Part shown: piece by piece, positions 45,829 to 64,000 of the stretch
Layout of the letters: the number at the start of each line of letters is the position of its first letter
How positions within the stretch are numbered: the first letter of the stretch is position 1
Assembly: GCA_963777935.1 (NCBI GenBank)
Contig: CAVZSL010000003.1
Coordinates: 19,957 to 83,956, forward strand
From: an uncultured Chloroflexia bacterium
GTDB taxonomy: Bacteria; Chloroflexota; Anaerolineae; Anaerolineales; UBA4823
DNA length: 64,000 nucleotides
Direction: 5' to 3'
Position numbers and translations under genes: made by a program
Notes under the pieces: model-generated
Seen by the model: only the letters and a program-made list of their open reading frames with translations
The model's database searches: none
What the model was told of the DNA's origin: nothing

Positions 45829-45837
45829 CTGGCTGTT

Positions 45838-46845: not shown

Positions 46846-46979
46846 GAACAATAAGAAACATGGATATAAAATTAATTATCAGGGACTATAAAAAACGAAA
46901 ACTATGTAAAGCCTTAGCAGAGTTGAATGAATTTCCGTACTCTATCAACTCTTGACCAATGCAAATGAAAAATCGGAAT

Positions 46980-47086: not shown

Positions 47087-47634
47087 TCCATTTTGGTTGC
47101 TATCTAAACCCTTTTAAGGGGTTTAGACAACAAAGATTCCATACACCAATCTCCATTTATTATTAATCACCCTTTCACCAGGTTGCTAATGGTTTTTAAT
47201 TGTATCTATGTGATCCCTATATATACACTGGACTAGTTCTTTTCCTCCTCCGAACAAGGCTGCAGGCTGCCTTTCCTCAACCAATCCAAAACGCTCGGCT
47301 ATTTATATGGAAATTTCTACATACTTAGTCCATAACACGTAATTTTGGCTGCTTTATACAGATAAATAAAAGAAGTATGTCTATGGTTAGAGAATTTCAC
47401 TTAATTGCGATATTAATTATACAGCCCACAGTAGATTCTATTCTGGCATCAAAAGCAATCTATAGAAAAATACAAAATAGTTGTTGTCGATCATTGATTA
47501 TTGAAATGTAATCACAATTATCATTAAGTTGGCAAAAACCGAGTAATATGGTTATAATATATTATAAGTATGTTTGTCTTATACCAGTTTTTTATAGCGC
47601 ACAATTGCTAGTCTAATATTTAAAGGAGAATGTA

Positions 47635-48390
47635 ATGCGAAATTTGTCTGGTAAACGCGTATTAGTAACTGGTGGCGCAAGAGGTATTGGCGCGGCGACA
47701 GCGAAACGCTTTTTAGAAGAAGGATCCAGAGTAATCGTTATTGATCGTTTTCGCCCAGCTCTCGAAGATATCAAAAAAGAGCTCCCACAATTGGAGGACA
47801 CCCTCTTAGCAGATGTTTCTGTTTTAGAAGATGTACATCGTGTTTATCAGCATTTAGATCATATATGGAATGGCTTGGATGTATTAATAAACAACGCAGG
47901 AATCAGCATCCGCCACAAATTCATGGATATCACGCCTGAAGAATGGCAAGATATCATGAATACAAACTTAACTGGTTTGTTTTATATGGCTAAGGAAGCT
48001 GCAAAACGCATGCTTGCAGCTGAAAAAGGGGTAATTATAAACATGGGCTCAACGAGCGGTTTCACGGGTTACCATTATTATGCAGATTACAATGCTTCCA
48101 AGGCGGGTGTAATAGAATTATCGCGTTCAATGGCGCTGGAACTTGCCCCCCATGTTCGGGTAATCGCACTTTGTCCAGGTTATGTCCTGACCCCGATGCA
48201 GGAGGCAGAATATACACCTGAAATGATGCGTGAAGTTGACAGAAAGATTCCTCTGGGGAGGCAGGCTAGACCTGAGGAAATGGCGGCAGTATTTGCCTTC
48301 CTGGCCTCCGACGATGCAAGTTACATCACAGGGTGCGCAATTACCGCTGATGGGGGTGAGACTGCTGGTGGACTGGCAAGTCAGAAATGA
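47635..48390 (+). CDS. SDR family oxidoreductase (FabG-like)
   Basis: VTGGARGIGAA (TGxxxGxG), NNAG, catalytic YNASK; 251 aa; GGAG SD. Confidence 0.9.
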   Translation: MRNLSGKRVLVTGGARGIGAATAKRFLEEGSRVIVIDRFRPALEDIKKELPQLEDTLLADVSVLEDVHRVYQHLDHIWNGLDVLINNAGISIRHKFMDITPEEWQDIMNTNLTGLFYMAKEAAKRMLAAEKGVIINMGSTSGFTGYHYYADYNASKAGVIELSRSMALELAPHVRVIALCPGYVLTPMQEAEYTPEMMREVDRKIPLGRQARPEEMAAVFAFLASDDASYITGCAITADGGETAGGLASQK

Positions 48391-48431
48391 TTGTCAGTAG
48401 AAGTAATGTTGTTGATACTAGACTAGAATTT

Positions 48432-48893
48432 CTAATTTCTATGCTCGCTTTCAATTGAAACATGTGGTGCATTCCAACATGGCGACTTATGTACGTGCAC
48501 CACTTTCCAAATGCCGTCTAATTTGACCATAACACGACTTTCATTATGTGCCTCTACACGCTCACCATCTGGAAAAGACGTGCTAACAAGAAGTGTGTAA
48601 CTTGCTATGGCAGTATCGCCATAGCGTTGAATACGAAGATTTGCAAGGTCAAATCGTGATTGGACCATTTGCTTTTCAGCTTGGATTTCCTGTTTTTTTT
48701 GGGCTTGTCGCTTGGCATCAGCAATAATCATGAATTCATGAAATGGTAGTCCATCAATTCGATGAGGTGTCAGCCACCATTCATATACAGCCAGGTCTTC
48801 AGCCGAGGTAGCTCGGTAGGTCTCTAAATCGTTATCCTGGACTGCCTGCAAGTGTTTTAGAAGAAATTCATGAATTTCAACATCTAAGGCCAT
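48432..48893 (-). CDS. NTF2-like (SnoaL/DUF4440-like) protein
   Basis: 153-aa ORF. The N-terminal helices and the C-terminal ..RVMVKLDGIWKVVHVH pattern are typical of NTF2-like cone folds. This is a weak call. Confidence 0.5.
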   Translation of the reverse strand: MALDVEIHEFLLKHLQAVQDNDLETYRATSAEDLAVYEWWLTPHRIDGLPFHEFMIIADAKRQAQKKQEIQAEKQMVQSRFDLANLRIQRYGDTAIASYTLLVSTSFPDGERVEAHNESRVMVKLDGIWKVVHVHKSPCWNAPHVSIESEHRN

Positions 48894-49260
48894 TGTGATC
48901 CTCTCTTGGTTATGTTATTGTTGTAACGGTGACTTTACTAGAAAATGGTTTTACCACAAACCCTCAAAGCTTCATTACATAAAGTAATTATATCTTCCTG
49001 CATTGGTGGAAAAAGTAACATCTTGCAGTTGATTCATTGTTGATTGAGTATCCTGCAATAAAAAGAATGGATAATATAGAACAAGAAGAGCGTCTGTAAT
49101 GAGAAAAAGATCGTAAGTAATTATAATGTGTAAATTATTCTCTTATCGACAGAAAGTTTTCATAATATATATTATGTAAAAAAGTAAATGACTAAACAGC
49201 AGATTGCCACAAATCGTCAGACTGAACCAATTAGAATCCAATGATGAAAGGAACCCAAGC

Positions 49261-50703
49261 ATGCCTCCAAATCAGCCAACTCTACGAGTTTTGACCGAGC
49301 TCGAATGTGATCAAATTGAAGAAACCACATTCCGATTGTTGGAGGAAGTGGGTATTCGATTGCAGCATCAGCAAGCAATGGAAATGCTTCAAGGCCAGGG
49401 CTGTCGCATTCAGGGTGATCGCGTACTAATCCCACGGGAGGTCGTGGCATGGGGTCTGGCGAATGTCAATCGAAATGCTTTCTTTCGCAGCGCGGATGGA
49501 TCTAATGAAGTGGTCTTGGGGCAAGACCGCTTTCTCACCCACAATGGAGGAAGCGTTCCGAACTTCGAAGACCTGGAGACTGGTAAGCGTCGGCCAGCGA
49601 AATTACAAGACCTGATCCAAGGTACCCGCATTCTCGACGCACTGCCCAACATCGATGTAGTCATCCCCCTGGTTGGGCCACAGGATGTGCCGGAAGAGCT
49701 GATGACCATCGCTTCATTCGAAGCCATGCTTCACCACACGCGAAAACCCATCGCGGGAGCAGCGGTCGAGAACCCAACGGATGTTCGTTACATGATCGAT
49801 TTGGCTTGCGCGTGCTGCGGTGGAAAAGAGGCTTTTCGCGCACGTCCTACCATCCCAATATTGGCATCGCCAATCAGCCCGCTGACTTTTACCGAAAAAG
49901 TGACAAGTGCCATCCTGGCAATTGTAGATGCGGGAGCCACATTTTTCCCCTTGCCTGCTCCAACAATGGGAGCGAGCGGCCCTATTACCATGGCTGGGGT
50001 ACTTGCACAGCAACATGCTGAAGTTTTAGCCAGCATTGTCATTACAGCAGCTGCTTGCCCTGGAGCGTCTGTGGTTTATTGTTCCCGGATTAATCCAATC
50101 GATATGCGGACAGGAGTGTCGTGGTGGGGTGGACCAGATATGGGTATGGCAGGTGCATGCGCAACCCAGCTGGCTCACCGAAGTGGGTTAAAGTCTGATG
50201 TCTATGGCCTATGCACCAGTGCGGCCAGGCTGGATCCAAGGTTCGCTTACGAGAAATTAGCAAATGCGCTCACACCAGCTTTGGCAGGTGCAGATATCCT
50301 TTCAGGAGTAGGTACGATGGATAGCGGTATGACAGCAACCTTAGCTGGGGCAGTACTCGACAATGAAATAATAAGTCTTATCCACCACATTCGGCGCGGA
50401 TATGAGGTAAATGAAGAAACATTGGCATTTGAAGTGATGAAGAAAGTGATCCTGACCGATGATATTTTTCTGGGCCAATTACACACTGTACAACACTTGC
50501 GAGACGGCACCATATGGTTCCCTGAGATAATTGAACGAGTAATGGAGACTGACTTCGACCCAAAGGCTGGTTTAGTTACTTTTGCAACTGACCAGGTCCA
50601 TGAACTTCTTAAAATGCCCGAGGAGGAGACTCTCTCCGAATCAGTATGCCGTGATCTGGCTGAAATTATGGAGCAGGCGCGGTGTGAATTAGTCACATCA
50701 TGA
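49261..50703 (+). CDS. MttB-superfamily (trimethylamine methyltransferase-like) methyltransferase, non-pyrrolysine type
   Basis: About 480 aa from ATG 49261 (GAAAGGAA SD). There is MttB-family similarity throughout (..LRVLTELECDQIEETTFRLLEEVGI.., ..SPISPLTF.., ..GADILSGVGTMDSGM..). The frame is uninterrupted, with no in-frame TAG. Confidence 0.8.
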   Translation: MPPNQPTLRVLTELECDQIEETTFRLLEEVGIRLQHQQAMEMLQGQGCRIQGDRVLIPREVVAWGLANVNRNAFFRSADGSNEVVLGQDRFLTHNGGSVPNFEDLETGKRRPAKLQDLIQGTRILDALPNIDVVIPLVGPQDVPEELMTIASFEAMLHHTRKPIAGAAVENPTDVRYMIDLACACCGGKEAFRARPTIPILASPISPLTFTEKVTSAILAIVDAGATFFPLPAPTMGASGPITMAGVLAQQHAEVLASIVITAAACPGASVVYCSRINPIDMRTGVSWWGGPDMGMAGACATQLAHRSGLKSDVYGLCTSAARLDPRFAYEKLANALTPALAGADILSGVGTMDSGMTATLAGAVLDNEIISLIHHIRRGYEVNEETLAFEVMKKVILTDDIFLGQLHTVQHLRDGTIWFPEIIERVMETDFDPKAGLVTFATDQVHELLKMPEEETLSESVCRDLAEIMEQARCELVTS

Positions 50704-50918
50704 ACTAATGACAGTGGATTTAAATTGCTGTATCAGGAAAAAGAAGCAAAAAACCTGGGAATTATTTAGCAAAATGCGATAATTCGAATTCAACCAAAAA
50801 AATCGATTGTACTTTAACCGTAGAAAGGAGCCGAAGACTGTAGCATAATCGAAAAAAGGAGTAACACAAATATTATCATCGGTTAATATAAACCAACCAG
50901 AGATAAAGGAGATTCGAA

Positions 50919-52565
50919 ATGAAGAAAAGATTTACCCACAGAGAATTTTTTAGACTCACGATTGGATTGGTGATAGTTTTAGCGACATTATTATCAAGTT
51001 GCGCTCCTGCTGCAACCAACACGCCTGAAGCCGCACCGGAAACCTCGGCGCCTCCTACATCAGTTCCTCCTACGTCAGTTCCTCCTACGTCAGTTCCTCC
51101 TACTGAAGTCCCCGCAGAACCTAAAGTTACCAAAATTCGGCTATACGGTGACATTCAAAACCTGGACCCCGCTTTCTATAAATCAGCCAACGATAAAGTA
51201 GTAGGCACAAATGTATATAGCGGTCTGGTGACTTATGCGCCCAACTCATATGACATCAAAAACGATCTCGCTGAAAGCATCGAAACATCTGAAGACGGGA
51301 CACAGATCACCTTTAAACTCAGGGAGGGTGTGCAATGGCAAAATGGATATGGCGAGGTGACCACAGAGGATGTTAAGTTCTCATATGAGCGGTTCATTGA
51401 CCCTGAGCTTAAAGCAGCGTATGCCGACGACTGGGCTCAATTGGACCATGTGGAGATTATCGATAAGTATAACGGTGTCATCGTCTTAAAAGGCCCATTC
51501 GCCCCGATTTGGCATTCCACCCTTCCAGTTACCGCTGGGTGGGTGTTGTGCAAGAAGTATGTTGAGGAAGTTGGTCTTGAAACTCTTGCAACCCAACCTT
51601 TGGGGAGTGGGCCGTACATCTTGTCTGAGTGGCTGCCGAAACAACAAGTTACCTTGACCCGCAATCCTGATTATTTTGGAACCCAGCCATACTATGATGA
51701 AATCCACTTCATCCCCATCGAGGACGACAAAGCTGCAGAGATCGCCATGGAAGCTGGTGAACTGGATTTTACTCAGATTAGCATCGACTCATTCGACCAA
51801 TTCGCCAGCAATACCGATTTTACTACTGTCAAAGTGCCGAACATCCGTTTCAGCTGGATTGGCTTGAATGTGGAAAATCCCAAATTAGCGGATGTCAACG
51901 TCCGATTGGCAATCCGTTACGGCATCGACGTGGATAGCATCATCGAAGCCACCTACTTTGGATTAGTAGATCGGGAATTAGGTTTGATCGCACCTGGCCT
52001 GGTTGGGTATTGGCCAGATGCTCCACGCTATGAACGTGATGTGGAAAAGGCAAAAGAATATCTGGCGACGGCTGGTCTCACCTCCTTAGATATCCGATTT
52101 GATATTTTGAACACGACCGAATATCAGACCTGGGCTCAAATCGCCCAACAGAATCTGAAAGAAGTTGGGATCAATGTAACCATCAACCCAATGGACTCAG
52201 CCAGCTTCTGGTCACTCGGCGATGGTGAACAAGGAAAGAATGCCGAGATGTTTGGGATCAACTACTCCATGGAGCCGGATCCCTCCTGGGCGACAGTGTG
52301 GTTCACGACCGCTCAAGTTGGTATCTGGAACTGGATGCGCTGGTCAAACACTGAGTATGATGAATTACACCTAGAAGGCTTGGCCACGCTTGATAATGCA
52401 AAACGAGATCAGATTTATATAAGAATGCAGCAACTTTTCGATGAAGCTGCCCATACCATCTGGATCACCCATGGAAACCTGGTCTTTGTTTACAAACCGA
52501 ATGTCAATGTAGCCATGACGCCAAATGGAGTTATCCAGCCTTATTCATTCTCTGGAACTCCTTAA
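50919..52565 (+). CDS. ABC transporter substrate-binding lipoprotein, family 5 (peptide/nickel/opine type)
   Basis: Lipobox LLSS-C followed by a (PPTSV)n linker. The body resembles DppA/OppA-type SBPs (..FKLREGVQWQNGYGEVTTEDVKFSYER.., ..GSGPYILSEW..). Confidence 0.9.
   Translation: MKKRFTHREFFRLTIGLVIVLATLLSSCAPAATNTPEAAPETSAPPTSVPPTSVPPTSVPPTEVPAEPKVTKIRLYGDIQNLDPAFYKSANDKVVGTNVYSGLVTYAPNSYDIKNDLAESIETSEDGTQITFKLREGVQWQNGYGEVTTEDVKFSYERFIDPELKAAYADDWAQLDHVEIIDKYNGVIVLKGPFAPIWHSTLPVTAGWVLCKKYVEEVGLETLATQPLGSGPYILSEWLPKQQVTLTRNPDYFGTQPYYDEIHFIPIEDDKAAEIAMEAGELDFTQISIDSFDQFASNTDFTTVKVPNIRFSWIGLNVENPKLADVNVRLAIRYGIDVDSIIEATYFGLVDRELGLIAPGLVGYWPDAPRYERDVEKAKEYLATAGLTSLDIRFDILNTTEYQTWAQIAQQNLKEVGINVTINPMDSASFWSLGDGEQGKNAEMFGINYSMEPDPSWATVWFTTAQVGIWNWMRWSNTEYDELHLEGLATLDNAKRDQIYIRMQQLFDEAAHTIWITHGNLVFVYKPNVNVAMTPNGVIQPYSFSGTP
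51051..51104 (+). repeat. 15-bp tandem repeat x3.6 encoding the (PPTSV)n linker
   Basis: CCTCCTACATCAGTT / CCTCCTACGTCAGTT / CCTCCTACGTCAGTT / CCTCCTACT. Confidence 0.9.
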
Positions 52566-52593
52566 TCACTATCTTTAATGCAAGCTGTGTTCT

Positions 52594-52623
52594 CTGGGGC
52601 TCAGGGAAACTCCTGAGCCCCAG
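52594..52623 (+). other. intercistronic stem-loop between the SBP and permease genes
   Basis: CTGGGGCTCAGG (52594-52605) pairs with CCTGAGCCCCAG (52612-52623). No T tract follows. Confidence 0.5.
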
Positions 52624-52686
52624 ATGGTATACTAAAGAATTAAAGTGCAATCGAATCTAGAGAGACGTTAATCCAATCTGCTTCCT

Positions 52687-53634
52687 ATGCGCGGATATTT
52701 CCTAAAGCACATTTTTATGACCTTAGTGGTGCTGATGGTGGTTATCATCGTTTTGGCCTTGTTGGTACACATTGTTCCCGGTGACCCGGCAAGAGTCTTT
52801 CTTGGCCAACGAGCTACGCCGGAATTGATAGCCAGATTTCGAAGCTCCATGGATCTCGATCAACCTGCCTATATCCAGATTGAACGCTTCTTATGGAGAA
52901 CCTTACACGGCGATCTAGGCGTCGATTTATGGACCGGGCGTTCCCTAACGGACACAATCGGAGACGTACTGCCTCATACAATAATCCTGGCCTGGACTAG
53001 TCTCACATTAGCTGTAATCGTTGGAATCCCATTGGGGGTCTTCTCAGCAAGCCACCCTGATTCGTGGGCCGATCGTGCAACGGCAATCCTTTCAATTTCA
53101 TTCATAACCATCCCAAGCTATGTTGGCGGTTTGATTATGTTGCTCATCTTTGCAGTGGAGCTCCAAGTGTTGCCCGCCATGGGTGTAGGCGAGGCAGGCG
53201 ATCCCGTCGATTACATCCGCCACCTAATAATGCCTGCCATTGCTTTGGCAATCCCTTGGGTGGGTTACCTTGCCCGATTGGTGCGTACGAGCCTGCTTGA
53301 AGTGTTTAATGCTGATTACATTCGATCGGCTCGAGCCGCGGGACTTAAGGAAAACCTGATTCTATACAAGTATGCGCTCAAAAATGCTTTGATTCCTACG
53401 ATTGCTGTACTTGGAGTCGGTATCGGCAACCTCATGGGCGGAGCTGTATTCGTAGAAGTCATTTTCAACCGACCGGGCATGGGAACGCTCATCTTTAACG
53501 CAATCCAAATGCGCAACTACCCTCTGGTGCGCGCCGGTGTGCTCGTAGTCGCCCTTCTTTTTATAATAGCTAACTTGATGACCGATATTGTCTATACCTA
53601 CCTCGACCCTCGCATCCAAATGCAAAGGAAATAA
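52687..53634 (+). CDS. ABC transporter permease (DppB/OppB-like)
   Basis: 315-aa, 6-TM ORF with the N-terminal ..HIVPGDPARVFLG.. motif and the EAA loop region ..YIRSARAAGLKE... Confidence 0.9.
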   Translation: MRGYFLKHIFMTLVVLMVVIIVLALLVHIVPGDPARVFLGQRATPELIARFRSSMDLDQPAYIQIERFLWRTLHGDLGVDLWTGRSLTDTIGDVLPHTIILAWTSLTLAVIVGIPLGVFSASHPDSWADRATAILSISFITIPSYVGGLIMLLIFAVELQVLPAMGVGEAGDPVDYIRHLIMPAIALAIPWVGYLARLVRTSLLEVFNADYIRSARAAGLKENLILYKYALKNALIPTIAVLGVGIGNLMGGAVFVEVIFNRPGMGTLIFNAIQMRNYPLVRAGVLVVALLFIIANLMTDIVYTYLDPRIQMQRK

Positions 53635-53647
53635 GATTACCATACAC

Positions 53648-54538
53648 ATGGAATCCTCTCTCACACGAAACAGGCGCATAGGCAATATCCTATATCGTAT
53701 ACCGGTTCTCGGGGATGTGCTGAAACGTCCACTGGGAGCGCTTGGTTTTGCGATTGTTTTGGGATTTGCCCTGGTGGTGATCTTTGCCCCGGTCATCGCA
53801 CCTCATAGTAGCGATGCTTTGGATATTCCACACAAGCTGGAAGGACCATCGTCCACCTACCTTTTGGGAACCGATCACCTGGGACGTGATATTCTTTCAC
53901 GGTTAATCTATGGATCGCGGATTGCACTAGGTACAGCGCTCTCCGCAGTGGGGCTTGCTCTCACTCTGGGATTATTCTTGGGTTTGATTTCAGGTTATGG
54001 GGGTAGCACTATCGATAATATCATCCTTGTCATCCTTAACTCGATCCAGGCTTTTCCAGCAGTCATACTTGCTCTGGCGATGTTGGCTTTACTCGGACCT
54101 TCTTTACTCAACGTAATTCTAGTCATCGGTTTTACTTGGGCACCTGGGTACGCACGAGTCGTGCGGGCGCAGGTATTATCTGTTAAGGAGAACACTTACA
54201 TCGAGGCAGAACGTTCCTTAGGTGCCAGTCGAAAACGTATTGTACTTATTCACGTCCTTCCAAACATTCTAGCACCTTTGGTAATCTTAGTGGCAATGGA
54301 CATACCGGTAGTGATAGCCTTTGAAGCTGGCTTATCGTTCCTGGGATTGGGTGCACCTCCACCCACACCATCTTGGGGTGCAATCCTTTCCGAAGGTTTT
54401 CGTTTTATCCGCAACTCACCCTGGCCAATCACCTGGGCAGCTTTGACGTTGATGCTAACGACTTTAGGCTTTACGCTTTTTGGAGAGACCTTACGAGACG
54501 TGCTGGATCCCCGGTTTTCGGGATTATGGAGAGCATGA
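53648..54538 (+). CDS. ABC transporter permease (DppC/OppC-like)
   Basis: ATG 53648. Motifs ..LLGTDHLGRDILSRLIYGSR.. and ..YIEAERSLGASRKRI... Confidence 0.9.
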   Translation: MESSLTRNRRIGNILYRIPVLGDVLKRPLGALGFAIVLGFALVVIFAPVIAPHSSDALDIPHKLEGPSSTYLLGTDHLGRDILSRLIYGSRIALGTALSAVGLALTLGLFLGLISGYGGSTIDNIILVILNSIQAFPAVILALAMLALLGPSLLNVILVIGFTWAPGYARVVRAQVLSVKENTYIEAERSLGASRKRIVLIHVLPNILAPLVILVAMDIPVVIAFEAGLSFLGLGAPPPTPSWGAILSEGFRFIRNSPWPITWAALTLMLTTLGFTLFGETLRDVLDPRFSGLWRA

Positions 54539-56629: not shown

Positions 56630-56703
56630 AATTGGCGCAATGATCGATTTTGCCCGGTTTACAAACCAGGCGAACGCCTTATCAAAATAATTAGGAGTGG
56701 ATT

Positions 56704-57339
56704 ATGGGCAATATCCTCGAACAAATCTCAAATGCAGTGGTAGAAGGACAGTTAAATGAAATTACCTCCTTGACGAATGCTGCGTTAGCTTCTGGTCTGA
56801 CGGCAAAGGATGTCTTGGATAAAGGCTTAATGCCTGGAATGGACATCGTTGGTGTCGGGTTCAAGCGGGGGGACAAATTCATACCTGAAGTATTGATTGC
56901 AGCAACCACAATGCAGATCGCGCTAGATATCCTTAAGCCACTCCTTGCTCAGGCAGGAGAGAAGATGGCTGGAAAAGTCATCATCGGTACTGTTAAAGGC
57001 GATGTGCACGATATCGGCAAAAAGCTGGTCAGTATGATGCTCGAAGGAGCTGGTTTCGAAGTTATCGATCTAGGCAAGGATGTACCAATGGATAAATTCG
57101 TAGACGCCGTGAGAAAAGAGCAGCCAGACCTGGTAGCCATGTCTGCCTTGTTGACAACCACGATGGTCTCGATGAGCCAAACAATCGCCGCGTTGAAAGA
57201 TGCAGGCCTGAGAGATATAGTCAAGATCATGATTGGCGGTGCACCTGTGACAGCGGATTATGCTAAACAGATTGGCGCAGACGGTTATGCTGCGAATGCA
57301 CCAGAAGCTGTCGAATTAGCGATGAAGTTAGCTGACTGA
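56704..57339 (+). CDS. cobalamin-binding corrinoid protein (MtbC/MttC/MtgC-like)
   Basis: 211 aa. An N-terminal helical cap, then the B12-binding motif GDVHDIGKKLV (DxHxxG), MSALLTTTM (SxL) and MIGGAP (GG). Confidence 0.9.
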   Translation: MGNILEQISNAVVEGQLNEITSLTNAALASGLTAKDVLDKGLMPGMDIVGVGFKRGDKFIPEVLIAATTMQIALDILKPLLAQAGEKMAGKVIIGTVKGDVHDIGKKLVSMMLEGAGFEVIDLGKDVPMDKFVDAVRKEQPDLVAMSALLTTTMVSMSQTIAALKDAGLRDIVKIMIGGAPVTADYAKQIGADGYAANAPEAVELAMKLAD

Positions 57340-57352
57340 GGTTGTGCTAATC

Positions 57353-57384
57353 ATCTGCCGGTCAAAAAACTGACCGGCAGATGC
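57353..57384. terminator. 13-bp perfect hairpin between convergent genes
   Basis: CATCTGCCGGTCA-AAAAAC-TGACCGGCAGATG. Confidence 0.55.
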
Positions 57385-57416
57385 TGCGAAAACCCAATTT
57401 ACTCAATATTTTCAAG

Positions 57417-58121
57417 TTACCTGCTAACTAAGCTCAGGATGTAAACGATTAATGGTGCTATAGCTAAAGCAGGGAGAAAGTTCCCAACGCGAATTTTCTT
57501 AATTTCTAATAGACTACTGACGCCAACACCGATTAGTAGTATTCCGCCTGTAGCAGTTAATTCATTCATCATCGCGGCGGTGATTATGGCATCTATTCTA
57601 GCTGCCAGCAGGCTAATACTTCCCTGATAGGCAAGTACTGGCAGAGCTGAAAATGTTACTCCCATTCCCAGTGTCGAAGCAAAGGCTATTGATAGAAAGC
57701 CATCAAGGACCGACTTAATAGAAAGCGTTAGATAGTCTCCCCGTAGCCCGTCACTAATGGAACCAAGTACAGCCATGGGTCCAGTACAAAAAAGCATGGA
57801 CGCACTGAGAAAGCCACGTACAAAACGGCTGGATTTTCCCTCAGAACTTCCCATTACCCGTTTTTCCAGCCAAATTCCCAGCGATTGCATTCTGTCTTCT
57901 ATTTTCCACCACTCTCCCAACAAAGCTCCAATAATTATTGCTCCCAGAACAACGAGAGGTTTTTCGGTTTTTAAAAACATCTGGAAACCAATGGCCGTTG
58001 TGAATAAGCCCATACCCGCAATCATGGTGCTTTTAATATTCTCTGAGAGACGCCTCCCAAAGAAAATTCCAAGCAAACCACCAACAATAATGGCGGCGAC
58101 ATTGATGAGGGTTCCTGTCAT
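57417..58121 (-). CDS. DUF554 family integral membrane protein
   Basis: 234-aa polytopic ORF. MTGTLINVAAIIVGGLLGIFFGRRL.. resembles YdfK/YqgA-type DUF554 proteins. Confidence 0.75.
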   Translation of the reverse strand: MTGTLINVAAIIVGGLLGIFFGRRLSENIKSTMIAGMGLFTTAIGFQMFLKTEKPLVVLGAIIIGALLGEWWKIEDRMQSLGIWLEKRVMGSSEGKSSRFVRGFLSASMLFCTGPMAVLGSISDGLRGDYLTLSIKSVLDGFLSIAFASTLGMGVTFSALPVLAYQGSISLLAARIDAIITAAMMNELTATGGILLIGVGVSSLLEIKKIRVGNFLPALAIAPLIVYILSLVSR

Positions 58122-58145
58122 TTTAATTCACGAGTGGCAGGATTG

Positions 58146-59615
58146 TTACTCTTGTTGTGGTAAAGCTGGAAGAGAGTCCATACCAAATTTATTGGCTGCG
58201 CGTAAAGTAACTGCACGGAGCTCCAGGCGCTGTTCATCGGTTAGTATATTCGGTTGGTATGTGGGTATTAGTTTTTCTACACGATCTCGAGCTCTCTCGA
58301 AAGCAGATTTCTCACCGCGGGCTTTCCAACCGTCAAATGACGCTCGATCTATTACCTCAGAGGGCAGGTACTGTTCCTCTCGGAACCATTTACGAGTATG
58401 CGCCAAGGTCAGGAAATCTCCTTTATGCCCACTCTTCTGCATCAAATTAAGTGCAATCGGATCATCACGTACGATAATTCCTTTTACAAAGCGCTTAACC
58501 ATGCCAATCATTTCAGCATCGATGACTAGTTTTTCATAACTTAGACATGATTCGAGGTCCATCATTCCACAGCCAGAGATGATATTTGCGCCAGACAGAG
58601 CTGCAACAAAATTACTTCCCATTGACTCGAGCCCGCATTGTGCATCAATAATCTTTGCATCACTCATACCCATATATGCATGTGTAGGCAGTCCTAAAGC
58701 CTTTCCGATTTGTACATAGGCAGAACTGATCATCCAGGTTTCGACTGCTCCCATGGGTGTAGATCCTTCCCGCATATCAAATATTGCTGGTGAACCTCCC
58801 CAAACAATGGGAGCACCGGCTTTCGCTAATTGGTGGATAACCACTCCACTTAAGGATTCGGCAGCATGTTGAACAATCGCTCCTGCAAGAGTTACCGGTG
58901 CTGTTGCTCCAGCAAGTGGCATAGAAATGAGTTGAGCAGGGATCAAGAAATGAGCGCAATCAATAAGATTTTGGCATGTAAAATCACTCCACAATAAGGG
59001 TGGAGATGGGCAAACATCGAATACGGCTGTTGGTTTGTTTGCAAGGGCTTCGTCGCCTCCAGCAACAAGTGAAAGCATTTCTTTCATTGTCCACCAGGTA
59101 TCTTTTCGAAAAGCCCCGGTAATGATTGGCTTATTCATATAATTTAAAGCCAGATAGAGACGATAGAGATCACCAATTTCTGGAACAACATCTGAGCACA
59201 CAAATGATGTACTTTGAGCATCAATTTGAGGCAGAGTCTCTACAAGTTTGGTAAATTTAATATAATCGTCAGTATTAGGTAAACGAGGGCGTTCTGTCTG
59301 GCTGTCGATGATCGTCAAACCACCTGATCCTGGATCAAAGTGGATTTTATCGCCATAGTAATGAACTGCGGCATTTCCGTTCAGATCAAATAAAGTAAAT
59401 TCTTTCGGAGCAGTCTGTAAAGCTTTTCGGATAATGTTTTCTGGAATATATGCTACCTGAGCCTTAAAGTCGACCTTGGCATTTGCACTTGCCAACAACT
59501 CTAATGCTTCTTGATTGTGTATACGTACCCCAGGGTTTTCCAAGATCGCGATTGCTTCAGAAATAATTTGCTTAACCAAATCACCATCAAGCATTTGTAG
59601 CTTCGGAATTAACAT
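58146..59615 (-). CDS. MttB-superfamily methyltransferase, non-pyrrolysine type (second paralogue)
   Basis: 489-aa uninterrupted ORF with family similarity (..LDGDLVKQIISEAIAILENPGV.., ..CPSPPLLW.., ..GANIISGCGMMDLES..). Confidence 0.85.
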   Translation of the reverse strand: MLIPKLQMLDGDLVKQIISEAIAILENPGVRIHNQEALELLASANAKVDFKAQVAYIPENIIRKALQTAPKEFTLFDLNGNAAVHYYGDKIHFDPGSGGLTIIDSQTERPRLPNTDDYIKFTKLVETLPQIDAQSTSFVCSDVVPEIGDLYRLYLALNYMNKPIITGAFRKDTWWTMKEMLSLVAGGDEALANKPTAVFDVCPSPPLLWSDFTCQNLIDCAHFLIPAQLISMPLAGATAPVTLAGAIVQHAAESLSGVVIHQLAKAGAPIVWGGSPAIFDMREGSTPMGAVETWMISSAYVQIGKALGLPTHAYMGMSDAKIIDAQCGLESMGSNFVAALSGANIISGCGMMDLESCLSYEKLVIDAEMIGMVKRFVKGIIVRDDPIALNLMQKSGHKGDFLTLAHTRKWFREEQYLPSEVIDRASFDGWKARGEKSAFERARDRVEKLIPTYQPNILTDEQRLELRAVTLRAANKFGMDSLPALPQQE

Positions 59616-59682
59616 AACGGACTCCTATGGAAAATAATTATGGATATGGTGCTTATATTATCGTTGGATTTGATTTTCTCAA

Positions 59683-60330
59683 TTATTGACCGAGTACTTG
59701 TTTTGCGACTTTGATTGCACCAATAGCATCCTCACTATAACCATCCGCACCAATTTGCTTAACCCAATCCATAGTCACGGGAGCACCACCTACCAGAACC
59801 TTTACCTTAGCGCGCATACCCACATCTTCCAGCGCTTCAATGACATCTTTTTGATGCACCATCGTGGTGGTAAGTAATGCACTCATGGCGATAATATCTG
59901 CGCCAACTTCACGAGCTTTTTCCACCACTTTCATCACAGGTACGTCCACACCCATATCAAAGACCTGGAAACCAGCTGAAGACAGCATTGTTCCTACTAA
60001 AGTTTTTCCAATTTCGTGGATATCGCCTTCAACGGTACATAGAACTACCTTGCCCAACATCTTTCGCTCGGTACCAAGCCTGGCTAATTCCGGCTCCAAC
60101 ACAGCCACAGCTGCCTTCATTGCTTCACCCGCCATGACTAGCTCGGGTAGATAGGCATCTCCGTTGGAAAAAGCTTCACCGACTTTGTTAACACCAACGA
60201 CAAAGCCTTGTGATATTGCTTCAAGAGGATCAATACCCAGGGCAATTGCCTGCTGGGCAAGTTCTGAAGCAACTTCATTATCCCCATCGATAATGCTTTG
60301 CGCCATCTTTTGATATAACTCGTTTGTCAT
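59683..60330 (-). CDS. cobalamin-binding corrinoid protein (second paralogue)
   Basis: 215 aa. GDIHEIGKTLV (DxHxxG), MSALLTTTM, LVGGAP. Confidence 0.9.
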   Translation of the reverse strand: MTNELYQKMAQSIIDGDNEVASELAQQAIALGIDPLEAISQGFVVGVNKVGEAFSNGDAYLPELVMAGEAMKAAVAVLEPELARLGTERKMLGKVVLCTVEGDIHEIGKTLVGTMLSSAGFQVFDMGVDVPVMKVVEKAREVGADIIAMSALLTTTMVHQKDVIEALEDVGMRAKVKVLVGGAPVTMDWVKQIGADGYSEDAIGAIKVAKQVLGQ

Positions 60331-60348
60331 ATGTTCTCCATTTATTAT

Positions 60349-60984
60349 TTAATAATTAATCATTATTCTTGAGAGAGTATTTTGAAGATGAGTTTTCATT
60401 GCCTCCTGGCACAAGGACTTTTCTCTATTCTTCAATGCGGTAAGTATATTTTCATGTTGGGAAGAATCTATGATAAAAGGATCGAGTGATAATGCCCGTT
60501 CTACCATTTCAAGCTGTTGCTGGATTAGCGAAGCCAAGATAGCATTCCCCGACGCACGCGCAATCATCATGTGGAATTCCTGGTTAAGTCTAAATGCATC
60601 AGGTTGGATGATGCGACCGACATGATTCGTCGAAATTTTATGTTCTTCTATATTGTTCATCTCCAATGCCTTGATTTCATCATTACCAACATAATCCACA
60701 GCCAAACCAATCGCTTCCACCTCTAAAATAATGCGGACATGGAACATCTCCTTGACATCCCGAATGGAAGGTTTAGTGATCATATAACCAATACGCGGTA
60801 AGGATTCTAAAAATTGCTCATGCGTCAGTACAACCAGGGCTTCCCTTGTGGGAGTTTTACTTGTTCCAAACCGCATACATAGTTCATCGATGTTGATTAT
60901 GTCACCCGGTTTTAATTCGCCAGAAATGATCGTTTGGCGTATTTTTTGGTACGCTTGATTAGATTGCGTAGTTAGATTTTTCAT
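60349..60984 (-). CDS. GntR family (FadR/FCD subfamily-like) transcriptional regulator
   Basis: From ATG 60984: MKNLTTQSNQAYQKIRQTIISGELKPGDIINIDELCMRFGTSKTPTREAL (wHTH), followed by a helical C-terminal domain. It ends 18 nt before the corrinoid gene start. Confidence 0.85.
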   Translation of the reverse strand: MKNLTTQSNQAYQKIRQTIISGELKPGDIINIDELCMRFGTSKTPTREALVVLTHEQFLESLPRIGYMITKPSIRDVKEMFHVRIILEVEAIGLAVDYVGNDEIKALEMNNIEEHKISTNHVGRIIQPDAFRLNQEFHMMIARASGNAILASLIQQQLEMVERALSLDPFIIDSSQHENILTALKNREKSLCQEAMKTHLQNTLSRIMINY

Positions 60985-60993
60985 GTTTTTAAG

Positions 60994-61019
60994 TGGATAT
61001 AATGTTTTGAGGATATAAT
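60994..61019. promoter_or_regulatory. two 9-bp direct repeats (GGATATAAT) immediately upstream of the GntR start; candidate operator or -10 elements
   Basis: GGATATAAT occurs at 60994-61002 and 61011-61019 with a 17-bp period. On the coding (minus) strand these read ATTATATCC twice. Confidence 0.35.
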
Positions 61020-61377
61020 ATTTAGATATATAATATATTATAAGCATATTCATGTTTATGTCAATAATTTCACATAATCACAAAAAGGAAATAATTGTGG
61101 GAGCCTGGCTCGTCGAAGGTGATTTATAGTATTAATTTACACTCTTGAAAATAATCGGATAAAAAACCATGTCATTTAGCATACACTCGGGATTGAATAT
61201 AAAATTATGCATGGTTGAGGATTTGTTATATTATTTATCATCTGAGGCTTAATATACCAATATCAACAGCTTTCAAGCCTTTCTCAATGTTTGTTCATCG
61301 CGAATTATATTGAATGGTCGGATACCACTCTATGATTCAAGTCACAATATAAACCAACAGCAATTAAGGAGATAACT

Positions 61378-62772
61378 ATGACACAAAAGAAAACCGTATA
61401 CCCATACATCCCTAATTCCGAACCCAATATTAAAGCCCAGATGCTTAAGGATGTTGGCGCGTCTAGCATCGATGAATTCTATAGTGACATTCCAATAGAA
61501 ATACGTCTTAATAGAGAAATGAACCTACCAACACCTTTAACCTCTGAGTATGAGCTACGTCGCCACATAGAAGGAATTCTCGGACAGAATAAAACAACGA
61601 AGCAATATCTTAATTTCCTTGGTGCTGGCTGCTATCAACACCATGTCCCAGCTGTTTGCGACGAGATTAACTCACGCAGCGAGTTCCTCACTGCATATGC
61701 GGGTGAACCATACGATGACCATGGTCGCTTTCAATCACTTTTTGAATACACAAGCATGATGGCTGAACTACTTGAAATGGATGTGGTCAATGTTCCGACA
61801 TATGATGGATTCCAGGCAGCTGCTACTGCATTGCGGATGGCTTGCCGCATCACAAATAGGAATAAAGTCTTATTGCCTGAAACTTTAGGTCGGGATATGT
61901 TATCAAAAATACGTGATTATCTCAAATTCGATATTGAAATTATCCTGGTTAAGCATAATCCATTAACAGGTGGGATTGATATACACCATTTGAAAGAATT
62001 ACTCACCCCTGAAATAGCAGCCGTTTTCTTTGAGAATCCGTCATATCTCGGCTTTTTAGAACTCAAGTGCACTGAAATTACCGAAATAGCCCATGGCCAT
62101 GGCGCAATTTGCATTGTAAACGTTGATCCAATTTCACTGGGGGTATTAAACCCTCCGATTGAATATGGAGCTGACCTTGTCGTCGGTGACATTCAGCCGC
62201 TTGGAATGCACATGTTGTTTGGCGGTGGGCAGGCAGGATTTATTGCCAGCCAAGATGATGAAAAATTTGTAATGCAATATCCATCGCGTTTATTTGGCAT
62301 CGTTCCAACAACGGTAAAAGGCGAGTACGGATTTGGCGATGTGGCTTACGAGCGTACTTCCTTTGCAAAACGTGAAGAAGGTAATGAATGGGTCGGTACG
62401 GCATCGGCGTTATGGGGAATCACGGCTGGAGTTTACCTGGCCTTGATGGGTCCACAAGGGATGAAAGAGATCGGTGAGGGGATCCTATATCGTTCACGAT
62501 ATGCTAAACAGGAAATTGGAAAAATAAATAATGTAAATACTGAGGTTTTTTGTGCACCACATTTCAAGGAATTTGTAGTTAACTTTAACGCTACCGGCAA
62601 GAGAGTAGCTTCTATTAATCAAGGATTGCTTGAAAGAGGAATCTTTGGTGGAAAAGATTTGAGCCATGAATTTCCTTGGCTTGGAGAAAGTGCGTTATAT
62701 TGTTTTACTGAAGTGCATACCAAGGATGACATAGACCTACTGGTATCTTCCCTAAAGGAGGTTTTAGCATGA
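61378..62772 (+). CDS. gcvPA: glycine dehydrogenase (decarboxylating) subunit 1-like protein (GcvPA-like, divergent)
   Basis: 464 aa; AAGGAG SD. The N-terminus YPYIPNSEPNIKAQMLKDVG.. and FLGAGCYQHHVP resemble GcvPA, but the usual TAYTPYQPE-SQG segment reads TAYAGEPYDDHGRFQ. Confidence 0.75.
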   Translation: MTQKKTVYPYIPNSEPNIKAQMLKDVGASSIDEFYSDIPIEIRLNREMNLPTPLTSEYELRRHIEGILGQNKTTKQYLNFLGAGCYQHHVPAVCDEINSRSEFLTAYAGEPYDDHGRFQSLFEYTSMMAELLEMDVVNVPTYDGFQAAATALRMACRITNRNKVLLPETLGRDMLSKIRDYLKFDIEIILVKHNPLTGGIDIHHLKELLTPEIAAVFFENPSYLGFLELKCTEITEIAHGHGAICIVNVDPISLGVLNPPIEYGADLVVGDIQPLGMHMLFGGGQAGFIASQDDEKFVMQYPSRLFGIVPTTVKGEYGFGDVAYERTSFAKREEGNEWVGTASALWGITAGVYLALMGPQGMKEIGEGILYRSRYAKQEIGKINNVNTEVFCAPHFKEFVVNFNATGKRVASINQGLLERGIFGGKDLSHEFPWLGESALYCFTEVHTKDDIDLLVSSLKEVLA

Positions 62773-64000
62773 AAAACATTACCGTTGAGCGTTTTACAGA
62801 TGGCAAGCCTAATCTTCGCCGGTTCCATCAAGCACGGTGGGATGAGCCAGTTATTTTTGAATTGGGTCAACCTGGGCAGAGAGGAATTTTGATTCCAGAG
62901 GTTGATGCAGAAATTAAGACTCAGGTGGGAAATCCACTGGAGGGTATCCCCGATACATTGTGTCGAAAGAGCCCACCCCACTTACCGGAAATATCACAAC
63001 CTGCTGTGGTGAGACATTATGTCCACCTTTCACAGGAGACTCTGGGTGTGGATTGTAATATTGATGTTGGACAGGGCACCTGCACTATGAAATATAGTCC
63101 GAAGGTTAACGACCAACTTGCACGGATGGTTGAGATGACTGAGTTACACCCGCTGCAAGACGAGACATCCGTACAGGGTATTCTTGAGATCTTTTGGCGC
63201 TTTGAACAAATTCTTAAAGAAATTTCTGGATTGGATAGGTTCACACTTCAGCCTGGCGCAGGTTCCGAGGCGATTTATACAAATGCTAGCATAATACGAG
63301 CTTACCATGCATCGCGTGGCGAATTAAACCAGCGAGATGAAATCATCACAACAATTTTCTCACATCCATCAGACGCAGCGTGTGCAAAGGTTGCAGGATT
63401 CAAAGTTATTACACTCTATCCAGACGGTGATGGCTATCCCGACTTAGAGGCTCTCAAGGCCGCTATTTCAGAGAGGACTGCGGGGCTTTTAATCACCAAC
63501 CCTGAAGACACCGGCATATTCAATCCAAAAATTGCCGAATTCACCCGACTTATTCATGCCGCTGGGGGGTTATGTTCTTATGATCAGGCAAACGCTAATG
63601 GAATTCTTGGTATCACACGTGCTCGGGAGGCAGGGTTCGATCTGTGTCATTTCAATCTGCATAAAACTTTCTCTACACCACACGGATGCGGTGGGCCGGC
63701 AGTTGGGGCAACCGGTGTAACGAATGAACTGGTTCGTTTCCTACCTGTCCCATTGGTTGATTTTAATGGTCAAAATTATTATCTGAACTATAACCTGCCA
63801 GATAGTATCGGAAAAATCCGCCCTTTCTATGGAGTAGCCCAAGCAGTTCTAAAAGCATATGCCTGGGTGATGTCATTGGGTGCTGAAGGATTGCGTGAAG
63901 TGGCAGAGGTGGCAGTTTTGAACAACAATTACCTGCTCAATAAAATCCTATCCATCCACGGAGTACGTGCGCCATACGCCGAAGGGAAACGCAGGATCGA
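62769..64000 (+). CDS. gcvPB: glycine dehydrogenase (decarboxylating) subunit 2-like protein (GcvPB-like), 3' end beyond the window
   Basis: ATG 62769 overlaps the upstream stop (ATGA). Frame 3 is open to the window end, so it is absent from the ORF track. Motifs ..VVRHYVHLSQETLGVD..GTCTMKYSPK.. and the PLP-lysine motif FNLHKTFSTPHGCGGP. Confidence 0.8.
   Translation, partial: MKNITVERFTDGKPNLRRFHQARWDEPVIFELGQPGQRGILIPEVDAEIKTQVGNPLEGIPDTLCRKSPPHLPEISQPAVVRHYVHLSQETLGVDCNIDVGQGTCTMKYSPKVNDQLARMVEMTELHPLQDETSVQGILEIFWRFEQILKEISGLDRFTLQPGAGSEAIYTNASIIRAYHASRGELNQRDEIITTIFSHPSDAACAKVAGFKVITLYPDGDGYPDLEALKAAISERTAGLLITNPEDTGIFNPKIAEFTRLIHAAGGLCSYDQANANGILGITRAREAGFDLCHFNLHKTFSTPHGCGGPAVGATGVTNELVRFLPVPLVDFNGQNYYLNYNLPDSIGKIRPFYGVAQAVLKAYAWVMSLGAEGLREVAEVAVLNNNYLLNKILSIHGVRAPYAEGKRRI

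Follow-up and report, generated by a model that had tools for sequence, protein, structure and literature searches.

How do two corrinoid methyltransferase systems come to lie between the genes of a glycine-decarboxylase cassette, and do they serve one pathway? The question is raised by the last 16 kb (47.6-64 kb) of a 64,000-nucleotide stretch of contig CAVZSL010000003.1 (assembly GCA_963777935.1, an uncultured Chloroflexia bacterium), which we call the window. Two MttB-superfamily methyltransferases, here MttB1 and MttB2, are encoded there together with two corrinoid proteins (Cor1 and Cor2), an ABC importer, a GntR-type regulator and the two subunits of a glycine decarboxylase P-protein (GcvPA and GcvPB). 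A first-pass annotation had seen in this gene set a stepwise N-demethylation route ending in an amino acid that is then decarboxylated or cleaved, an interpretation that is partly supported by the present analysis.

We propose that the 16 kb form a single catabolic unit under GntR control, in which a widespread P-protein cassette supplies the frame and two corrinoid methyl-harvesting modules sit inside it, a proposal that we hold to be evenly poised between right and wrong. The evidence that carries it consists of gene identities, motifs, pocket signatures, synteny and a shared conserved palindrome.

The locus and its genes

Genes were identified by Pfam scans of the large open reading frames (ORFs) of the window, by NCBIfam equivalog cut-offs and by tblastn with seeds from related loci (designated below by L numbers). 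Every gene of the first-pass list is present, at the position given there or a few codons off (ORF listing and profile searches), and the ABC importer, DUF554, GntR, SDR and NTF2-like genes are all confirmed by Pfam. The host is a soil Chloroflexota bacterium whose nearest loci come from Anaerolineales/"Chloroflexia" metagenome-assembled genomes (MAGs), so that the suspicion of a Chloroflexota-like background was well founded. The features are the following.

47529-47567, plus strand: predicted promoter of the SDR gene (TTGGCA-18-TATAAT); a candidate operator, the 16-bp palindrome TTATAATATATTATAA (47552-47567), overlaps it
47635-48390, plus strand: SDR dehydrogenase (Pfam adh_short_C2, E=7e-61)
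48432-48893, minus strand: NTF2-like protein (CaMKII_AD / SnoaL_3 / DUF4440)
49161-49176, no strand assigned: variant palindrome CATAATATATATTATG in the MttB1 promoter region, a weaker candidate operator
49261-50703, plus strand: MttB1, a non-pyrrolysine (non-Pyl) MttB-superfamily methyltransferase 1 (MT1) of 480 aa (PF06253, E=5e-73)
50919-52565, plus strand: family-5 (Opp/Dpp/Nik-type) substrate-binding protein of the ABC importer (SBP_bac_5)
52687-53634 and 53588-54538, plus strand: two ABC permeases (BPD_transp_1)
54373-56629, plus strand: fused DppD/DppF-type double ATPase (oligo_HPY), split by a frameshift
56704-57339, plus strand: corrinoid protein Cor1, with DVHDIG at residue 100, closing the MttB1 transcription unit
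57417-58121, minus strand: DUF554 membrane protein, a putative transporter, 24 nt after MttB2
58146-59615, minus strand: MttB2, a non-Pyl MttB-superfamily MT1 of 489 aa (PF06253, E=1e-88)
59683-60330, minus strand: corrinoid protein Cor2, with DIHEIG at residue 103
60349-60984, minus strand: GntR/FCD regulator, in the 211-aa form called in L068 (the ORF is open to 61053)
61007-61064, no strand assigned: divergent promoter region, with the palindrome ATATAATATATTATAA (61028-61043) across both -10 boxes
61378-62772, plus strand: GcvPA, P-protein alpha subunit of the cassette type, above the NCBIfam cut-off
62769-64000 (window end), plus strand: GcvPB, P-protein beta subunit, 410 of about 528 aa, with the motif NLHKTF

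The whole 16-kb arrangement recurs in L001, L002 and L059-L061 (MttB2 is 94% identical in L001 and 92% in L002), and L071 has the same order from the SDR to MttB2, where its contig ends, with one CN-hydrolase gene in addition. The NTF2-like gene is kept beside MttB1 in L001, L002, L059, L071 and L072. The locus is an inherited feature of the lineage, in spite of the tRNA-Lys gene and the AT-rich 1.8 kb at its left. A recent genomic island at that tRNA-Lys could be ruled out, the order metK-trx-SDR-NTF2-MttB1 being syntenic in L071 and L072 (MttB1 76% identical).

Two methyltransferases outside the characterised specificities

The two MttB ORFs have no internal stop and cover the PF06253 profile entirely or nearly so, as first described; on the MTTB profile (500 positions) MttB1 scores 246 bits over 21-494 and MttB2 298 bits over 28-495, and the PDB matches of the two proteins are 7XCL, 2QNE, 9YCE and 4YYC. 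Their assignment to the non-Pyl branch, made earlier from the lack of an amber codon, holds at the aligned residue itself: the codon that corresponds to the pyrrolysine of M. barkeri MttB is TGC in MttB1 (Cys318, 50212-50214) and ATG in MttB2 (Met317, 58665-58667). There is no in-frame UAG, and with 319 and 389 bits the two proteins fall below the 525-bit cut-off of TIGR02369, the Pyl-MttB model, which is the only MttB-type model in NCBIfam. They are 24% identical to each other and 21-31% identical to their solved relatives, namely Pyl-MttB (7XCL), MtgB (2QNE/9YCE) and a homologue from S. meliloti (4YYC). The pairing of each with its own DxHxxG corrinoid protein is also borne out, Cor1 and Cor2 having both a B12-binding_2 cap and a B12-binding Rossmann domain with that motif; on TIGR02370 (cut-off 215.3 bits) Cor2 lies above the threshold with 226.6 bits and Cor1 slightly under it with 211.3.

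The substrate pocket is where the two proteins depart from everything characterised. A 2026 study of MtgB showed, by mutagenesis and with a ligand-bound structure, that the quaternary nitrogen is held by Y97 and F356 and the carboxylate by R312 and H348; the R312L mutant is inactive, H348E keeps only a trace of activity, the Km rises about 400-fold in R312K and several hundred-fold in F356L, and the enzyme uses neither dimethylglycine nor sarcosine (PMC13080624). MtcB, MtpB, MthB and MtyB retain R312 (PMC13080624).

We compared the positions equivalent to MtgB Y97/R312/L317(Pyl)/H348/F356 in an alignment of 320 sequences. MtgB itself reads Y-R-L-H-F and the alphaproteobacterial type [S/Y]-R-(L or gap)-H-G, whereas MttB1 has G97-D313-C318-S348-G356 and MttB2 has S97-H312-M317-S347-E355, so that none of the four glycine-betaine-binding residues is kept in either MttB2 (S,H,S,E) or MttB1 (G,D,S,G). 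The signature S-H-M-S-E is essentially invariant in the 168 sequences of the MttB2 clade, which come from Anaerolineae, Acidobacteriota and Heimdallarchaeota and range from 100% down to about 50% identity (with rare changes of S to T, A or C and of M to L). The MttB1 clade reads G-D-C/S/A-S-G, and the Asp is retained in nearly all of its roughly 130 sequences. The R312-equivalent arginine is therefore absent clade-wide, with His312 in MttB2 and Asp313 in MttB1, the enzymes of E. limosum entering this comparison only through the statement of PMC13080624.

Judging from these signatures and from the identities of at most 31% to the solved MttB and MtgB, both proteins appear, as the first-pass annotation had suggested, to represent uncharacterised clades, and neither fits the binding mode of a characterised member. 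The MttB2 pocket, which lacks an aromatic pair to hold a quaternary nitrogen and has Glu at F356 and His at R312, would be compatible with an N-H+ amine bearing a carboxylate; the Asp that takes the place of the carboxylate-binding Arg in MttB1 argues for a substrate that would present no carboxylate at this point. Earlier MAG surveys recorded MttB homologues in Anaerolineae and Acidobacteriota, under the labels mttB or mtgB (PMC11264602, PMC6081815), and the exact MttB1 product is already on record (P0121). The presence of such genes in MAGs is thus not new, and it is their specificity that is at issue.

The P-protein cassette and its junction with the MttB modules

The two-subunit enzyme had been called "GcvP-like"; its presence is certain and the suffix was too weak, since both subunits exceed their NCBIfam equivalog cut-offs (488 vs 364 bits and 485 vs 441 bits for GcvPA and GcvPB). 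GcvPA matches the alpha subunit of the Thermus thermophilus P-protein structure (1WYT) with E=8e-64, and the PLP-lysine motif (PLP, pyridoxal phosphate) NLHKTF is intact in GcvPB. The full-length GcvPB orthologue of L062 also passes the cut-off, keeps NLHKTF and aligns end to end with 1WYT_B (phmmer E=7e-99).

Among the best 80 GcvPA relatives in representative genomes (loci L074-L153), about 70 have a COG3199 gene ("predicted polyphosphate/ATP NAD kinase") immediately downstream of GcvPB or ahead of GcvPA. One or two SDRs accompany most of them, and a divergent GntR gene accompanies many. The hosts of this cassette include Chloroflexota, Synergistaceae, Streptosporangiales, Kitasatospora/Streptomyces, Bathyarchaeia, Caldisericota, Phycisphaerae and Clostridia. 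In the close relatives L059 and L074, from which we read the gene order past the window end, GcvPB is followed by the COG3199 gene, which here would lie just beyond position 64,000. The window's own GcvPA product has no entry on record, and that of Cor2 led only to a contig of 2.6 kb. Gemmobacter, Sphingomonas, Rhodococcus and Paracoccus aminophilus have more distant cassettes (GcvPA 44-47% identical; L155-L158) on plasmids or chromids. These are accompanied by zinc-dependent alcohol dehydrogenases (Zn-ADHs) or SDRs, as well as by an APC permease, an acyl-CoA synthetase and a primary-amine oxidase. No gcvT or gcvH occurs within 10 kb of the cassette loci, chromosomal and plasmid alike, and no GcvH or GCV_T match was obtained in the window or in the loci fetched around cassette-type GcvPA. 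One cluster (c128), beside GcvPA in L100, L093 and L079, was considered as gcvT and rejected, being a threonine-dehydrogenase-like Zn-ADH; recurrent ORF clusters in the high-GC Acidobacteriota/Actinomycetota loci were mostly antisense artefacts. At Rfam gathering thresholds there is no glycine riboswitch 5' of gcvPA, a SAM (S-adenosylmethionine) riboswitch and a tRNA being the only matches in the window.

The P-protein of the cassette is an extra copy in lineages with a single-chain housekeeping GcvP. To judge from their sequences the cassette proteins look like genuine P-proteins, and their constant kinase-like and dehydrogenase company, together with this extra-copy status, suggests a dedicated catabolic role. 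For the kinase-like protein itself, neither a solved structure (by sequence) nor an NCBIfam model was found. On a plasmid of Peptoclostridium acidaminophilum (L154, 8992-11068) a COG3199 kinase-like gene overlaps the start of a gene for a 328-aa PLP enzyme of the class I/II fold, a pairing which suggests a more general partnership between the kinase-like protein and PLP enzymes. We found no published account of a GcvPA/GcvPB-COG3199-dehydrogenase cassette.

The SDR at the left of our locus (top NCBIfam score, BudC) is the cassette SDR, for copies 53-64% identical stand beside GcvPA in Chloroflexota, Synergistaceae and other lineages. With this SDR at one side and GntR/GcvPA-GcvPB-(kinase-like) at the other, the two halves of the cassette bracket both MttB modules. 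The latter are insertions in an independent cassette, and GcvPA/GcvPB are not an add-on to a methylamine pathway. In this respect the link between methyltransferases and glycine decarboxylase drawn in the first-pass annotation has to be divided: the tie of MttB2 to the P-protein stands (synteny, palindrome), the notion that the decarboxylase belongs to the demethylation route as such does not, as it is the core of a cassette found without MttB in many phyla.

For MttB2 the association is frequent: among the 14 distinct genomes or contigs with enough flanking sequence and an MttB2 orthologue at least 83% identical, the cassette adjoins the gene in 12. It does so in two architectures. In that of the window, gntR-cor2-mttB2-DUF554 diverges from gcvPA-gcvPB-NADK; in that of a sister subclade (L062), gntR is followed by the co-directional genes mttB2-gcvPA-gcvPB-kinase-SDR-SDR, where mttB2 and gcvPA are 43 nt apart and the vicinity lacks a corrinoid gene (L064 resembles L062 without the gntR). 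Moreover, MttB2 is linked to two cassette paralogues, the window's own type and one whose GcvPA is 63-65% identical (L004, L005, L006, L008), and the MAG MFD04408.bin.2.99 has both (L004, L080). A further, independent MttB/GcvPAB neighbourhood is that of a Syntrophomonadaceae MAG (L100, 6739-13000), in which a Pyl-type mttB with an in-frame TAG (7726-7728) lies about 0.6 kb 5' of Zn-ADH-GcvPA-GcvPB, the Zn-ADH being threonine-dehydrogenase-like. A functional tie between MttB2 and GcvPA/GcvPB is thus backed by synteny in two architectures, as well as by the palindrome described below. In agreement with the first impression that no described system has this gene set, none was found in the literature.

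A palindrome shared by the two halves of the locus

The unit gntR-cor2-mttB2-DUF554 (gaps of 18, 67 and 24 nt) is preceded by a minus-strand sigma-70 promoter at 61064-61037 that agrees with the consensus at 12 of 12 positions, and a promoter-like site lies on the plus strand, on the gcvPA side, at 61007-61034. The palindrome TTATAATATATTATAA has exactly two sites in the 64 kb at up to three mismatches, where 0.33 would be expected: at 47552-47567 one copy overlaps the predicted -10 box of the SDR gene, and the other, at 61028-61043, spans the -10 boxes of both the gntR and the gcvPA side. A 14-bp core is kept at the SDR site in L069, L070, L071 and L072, and at the gntR/gcvPA site in L001, L002, L059 and L074; it persists while the nearby intergenic DNA has diverged, the proteins of these genomes being 76-95% identical. 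The variant CATAATATATATTATG in front of MttB1 has two extra central bases and is only partly conserved (L059, L069).

The regulator belongs to the FadR/FCD subfamily of GntR proteins, with an N-terminal winged helix-turn-helix (PF00392) and a C-terminal FCD domain (PF07729), and we infer that it binds the palindrome as its operator. The two cassette halves and the MttB2 module, perhaps the MttB1 module too, are likely to make up one regulon, for which the palindrome is the best computational evidence available.

Partners of the two MttB clades and components presumably encoded elsewhere

The conserved partners of the two methyltransferases differ. MttB1 is always found with the Opp-like importer, which in the window has all the parts of an Opp/Dpp/Nik-type system (SBP_bac_5, two BPD_transp_1 permeases, ATPases with oligo_HPY). 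A scan of representative genomes gave only two close genomes for MttB1, and metagenome contigs were used instead: genes 55-56% identical still head an operon MttB-SBP5-two permeases-ATPase on three unrelated contigs (L073, L159 and a JGI contig). Two of these (L073, L159) also encode a URO-D (MtaA-like) protein of the MT2 type (methyltransferase 2), two of the three have an ornithine-cyclodeaminase/mu-crystallin gene, and one a MetH activation-domain-like protein. Since MttB1 keeps the Opp-like operon, its substrate would be whatever that system imports; there is a precedent for Opp-like ABC import of a betaine in Prb of S. meliloti (Alloing 2006, as cited in PMC11337228).

MttB2-type genes, on the other hand, are paired with a corrinoid protein almost everywhere, and in the subclade of the window with DUF554, the last gene of the unit, which is kept after MttB2 in orthologues at least 80% identical. 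Given an identity of only 24% between the two MttBs and these different partners, they may, but need not, be two paralogous steps of one route, as first put forward.

More remote MttB2 relatives keep other company. An Acidobacteriota MAG (L027, 7012-12100) has RACo, a homocysteine S-methyltransferase (PF02574), a PF02965-like (stand-alone MetH activation-domain-like) protein, MttB and Cor together; five Heimdallarchaeota loci (L038 at 6631-11443, L040, L042, L043, L052) have Cor, homocysteine methyltransferase and a PF02965-like protein beside MttB; and in L009 (7343-12143) a PF02965-like protein and RACo lie upstream of MttB and Cor. By analogy, these sets resemble a split methionine synthase with MttB in place of the folate module, in which a methylated amine would take the part of methyl-THF. 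In an Anaerolineae locus (L065), a dimethylglycine/sarcosine-dehydrogenase-like gene stands directly 5' of an MttB2-like/Cor pair. On three Anaerolineae contigs (L067 at 8503-21464, L035, L037), three to five MttB paralogues of different clades follow each other in a row, and in L067 this row adjoins GcvPA, GcvPB and a kinase-like gene.

The first-pass annotation had noted that the window lacks an MT2 and a RamA-type activase, and this we can confirm: there is no PF00809, PF02007, PF01208 or PF02574 protein among its large ORFs, and tblastn found no match in the 64 kb with URO-D and homocysteine methyltransferase seeds, nor with RACo and PF02965-like seeds. In R. pomeroyi, the MT1 and corrinoid protein MtgB/MtgC are likewise encoded away from the MT2 and the RamA activase (PMC12478193), so that a locus without MT2 and activase is normal for systems of this kind. 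Candidates for the missing parts stand beside the relatives just described: RACo in L009 and L027, homocysteine methyltransferase and the MetH-activation-like protein in L027 and the five Heimdallarchaeota loci, and the URO-D MT2 in L073 and L159.

What the locus may do

We think of the locus as follows, all substrates, the direction of flow and the methyl acceptor being inferred. A first module (mttB1, the Opp-like importer and cor1) would import a methylated amine, from which MttB1 would pass one methyl group to Co(I)-Cor1. By the second (gntR, cor2, mttB2, DUF554), another methylated amine would be taken up and demethylated onto Cor2; our preference is for a protonatable N-methylglycine (sarcosine, dimethylglycine) over glycine betaine itself. 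An MT2 encoded elsewhere, of the homocysteine S-methyltransferase or the tetrahydrofolate (THF)/URO-D type, would unload methyl-Cor1 and methyl-Cor2, and a protein of RACo/RamA type or MetH-activation type, also encoded elsewhere, would keep the two corrinoid proteins active. The demethylated skeleton would end as glycine or a near analogue, which the cassette P-protein would decarboxylate with H, T and L proteins from elsewhere in the genome.

The N-methylglycine assignment is tentative, somewhere between doubtful and moderately unlikely; it is suggested by the link to the P-protein, the dimethylglycine dehydrogenase (DMGDH)-like neighbour in L065 and a pocket with Glu and His and no aromatic cage. 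We know of no corrinoid-dependent dimethylglycine or sarcosine methyltransferase that has been characterised, and no literature on an MttB specific for either compound was found. For strain DCMF and Sporomusa, a corrinoid demethylation step for dimethylglycine has been suggested only (PMC9768040). If all these assumptions were combined, MttB2 would be a sarcosine/dimethylglycine MT1 feeding glycine to a dedicated P-protein, in the first oxygen-independent corrinoid route to strip the last methyl groups off N-methylglycines, a possibility that we consider rather doubtful.

Several observations weigh against the proposal of a single catabolic unit. The cassette occurs without any MttB in about 78 of the 80 loci surveyed, two of the 14 close MttB2 orthologue loci (L036, L007) have no GcvPAB nearby, and the wider MttB2 clade (62-68% identical; Acidobacteriota, other Anaerolineae) usually does without it, the partners in that clade pointing to methionine synthesis over glycine catabolism. 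Nor does gcvT or gcvH ever neighbour the cassette, which may therefore act on something other than glycine. Many GntR sites have a GT...AC core, which our palindrome does not have, and the latter could be two back-to-back -10 boxes, hence a matter of promoter architecture rather than an operator. The ATPase of the importer is frameshifted in the window, through a sequencing error or as a pseudogene. Finally, MttB1 and MttB2 may act on unrelated compounds, and the pocket argument for a substrate comes from an alignment.

The alternative that survives best, although we believe it unlikely, is that the MttB modules provide the methyl groups for a split methionine synthase that needs no folate (from a methylamine via the corrinoid protein to homocysteine), the adjacency of GcvPA/GcvPB reflecting lineage gene order or shared regulation and the demethylated product being excreted, like dimethylglycine by MtgB organisms. 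The PF02574, PF02965-like and RACo partners in L027, L038, L040, L042, L043, L052 and L009 speak for it, as do the R. pomeroyi MtgB/MtgC, which run with a split MetH (PMC12478193), and, 3 kb upstream of the locus, the metK gene with its SAM riboswitch, which L071 and L072 have in common with the window. It leaves unexplained, however, why MttB2 joins the cassette in two independent architectures, why it is associated anew with a cassette paralogue and why the conserved palindrome is shared, and neither the homocysteine methyltransferase nor the activation-domain gene was found in the 64-kb window.

Glycine betaine is the commonest osmolyte of this kind, and one could suppose that MttB2 is a functional MtgB with a different binding solution in an ordinary betaine locus, dimethylglycine being consumed via MttB1 or by oxidative enzymes encoded elsewhere and glycine going to the normal glycine cleavage system. 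The best-scoring NCBIfam models of Cor1 and Cor2 are indeed those of MtgC, yet under the cut-offs (227 vs 310 and 224 vs 370 bits). Chloroflexota/Acidobacteriota genes are already labelled mtgB in MAG surveys (PMC6081815), and the DMGDH-like neighbour in L065 would fit as well. Nevertheless we find this improbable: MttB2 replaces all four validated MtgB residues (Y97S, R312H, H348S, F356E), the betaine-linked alphaproteobacterial enzymes retain Y/S-R-H, and GcvPAB is here of the cassette type rather than a gcvT/gcvH-linked set.

Least probable of all, to our mind, is that the cassette acts on a non-glycine compound (an amino alcohol or hydroxy-amino acid derivative) whose N-methyl forms the MttBs demethylate, for even though the kinase-like/GcvPA/GcvPB core is spread over Chloroflexota, Synergistaceae, Actinomycetota, Bathyarchaeia, Proteobacteria and plasmids, always beside alcohol dehydrogenases of the SDR or Zn-ADH kind, frequently beside an APC permease, amine oxidase or acyl-CoA synthetase and never within 10 kb of gcvT/gcvH, as an extra copy where the housekeeping GcvP is single-chain, and even though the P. 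acidaminophilum kinase-like gene pairs with another PLP enzyme, both subunits pass their equivalog cut-offs, with the PLP-lysine motif intact in GcvPB, the L062 GcvPB does so too and can be aligned over its full length to the P-protein of T. thermophilus, and we have no other substrate to propose.

Split genes and neighbouring regions

The frameshift in the double ATPase lies near 54909-54917 and gives two ORFs (54373-54951 and 54917-56629), where the orthologue in L059 is one unbroken gene of 700 aa. The nearest genomes are long-read MAGs, and two further genes of the window are split alike into two overlapping ORFs, as by a single frameshift (an M16 peptidase at 28624-29905 and a penicillin amidase at 32528-35072), so a sequencing error is a reasonable suspicion for the ATPase; all three genes could be sequencing errors or pseudogenes.

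To the left of the locus (45757-47634), some 1.8 kb of DNA with 34% GC lies after tRNA-Lys(TTT) and contains an ORF of 294 aa (45961-46845) that has no Pfam match; the corresponding gap between tRNA-Lys and the SDR has few or no called genes in relatives. Further upstream (43823-45244), a SAM (S-box) riboswitch (87 bits) stands directly 5' of metK. The metK and trx genes and the neighbourhood of the locus are conserved in L071 and L072, which have a CbiMQO cobalt transporter and a Fur gene between metK and trx. At 37915-41501, an otherwise standard rpsB-tsf-pyrH-frr-uppS-cdsA row is interrupted between pyrH and frr by two large ORFs of 670 and 525 aa; they have no Pfam matches, the first resembles a multi-pass membrane protein, and the region has strong GC and AT skew.

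Implications

Few "methylotrophy" genes are commoner in MAGs from soil and sediment than those for non-Pyl MttB homologues. To our knowledge only five substrate specificities have been established among them, all for quaternary amines bound via one conserved Arg. The MttB1 and MttB2 clades, which are abundant in Anaerolineae and Acidobacteriota and present in Heimdallarchaeota, break this rule, and their context narrows the choice of candidate substrates: for MttB2 these are N-methylglycines, for MttB1 methylated amines that are doubly charged or have no carboxylate. As far as we know, anaerobes stop at dimethylglycine or switch to reductases; if MttB2 did demethylate sarcosine or dimethylglycine, a gap in the anaerobic mineralisation of betaine would be closed. 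One survey found mttB in 17% of its MAGs (PMC11264602). The undescribed cassette would be a second and possibly larger finding: its genes are currently annotated as ordinary glycine cleavage genes and may be mis-assigned in metabolic reconstructions. The locus as a whole would seem a good, if unproven, lead for experiment.

Comparison with known systems

A close counterpart is the glycine betaine:THF methyltransferase system MtgB/MtgC/MtgA of Desulfitobacterium hafniense (2QNE, 9YCE), which likewise combines a non-Pyl MT1 of the PF06253 TIM-barrel type with a DxHxxG corrinoid protein. By phmmer, MttB2 matches this MtgB with E=2e-61 (30% identity) and MttB1 with E=5e-50 (26%). The window differs in that the four betaine residues are replaced, in that there is no MtgA-type MT2 or RamA in the locus, in its means of import (an Opp-like ABC system and perhaps DUF554, instead of a BCCT/OpuD transporter) and in the nesting of its modules in a P-protein cassette. 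The trimethylamine methyltransferase MttB/MttC of methanogens (M. barkeri, 7XCL) has the same type of corrinoid partner and is the top PDB match of MttB2 (E=1e-63, 31% identity), but it depends on amber/Pyl, where the window has Met317 and Cys318, and in our bacterial host the methyl groups would not be fed to coenzyme M.

The enzymes of Eubacterium limosum (MtcB, MtpB, MtyB and MthB, for carnitine, proline betaine, gamma-butyrobetaine and phosphocholine) are also non-Pyl and have dedicated corrinoid proteins, and MthB shows that a kinase can belong to such a pathway; they keep R312 (PMC13080624), in contrast to the His or Asp of the window, a comparison made by description. In R. pomeroyi (MtgB/MtgC/MtgD/MtgE; PMC12478193) betaine demethylation is merged with a split methionine synthase, with homocysteine as a possible acceptor, which recalls the MttB2 relatives that adjoin homocysteine methyltransferase, activation-domain and RACo genes. 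Its MT1, however, is of another MttB clade (about 25% identical, with an [S/Y]-R-H pocket), and the downstream steps are oxidative (DMGDH, sarcosine oxidase). With Prb, the proline betaine importer of S. meliloti, the window's importer shares the peptide/nickel (family 5) type, at family level only.

The P-protein of Thermus thermophilus (1WYT) and that of the window have the GcvPA/GcvPB architecture and the PLP-lysine motif in common; unlike the former, the cassette genes are unlinked to gcvT/gcvH, are linked to COG3199 and alcohol dehydrogenase genes, and are accessory and sometimes plasmid-borne. The gene for AcoX directly adjoins those for a two-subunit enzyme that charges a lipoyl carrier and has genes for SDRs of the butanediol type as neighbours too. 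By description, it is the nearest analogy that we can offer for the kinase-like protein of the cassette, the partner enzyme depending on PLP here and on thiamine pyrophosphate in the acetoin-cleavage operons (acoXABC), where AcoX is likewise a predicted NAD-kinase-like protein of unassigned role (PMC9676059).

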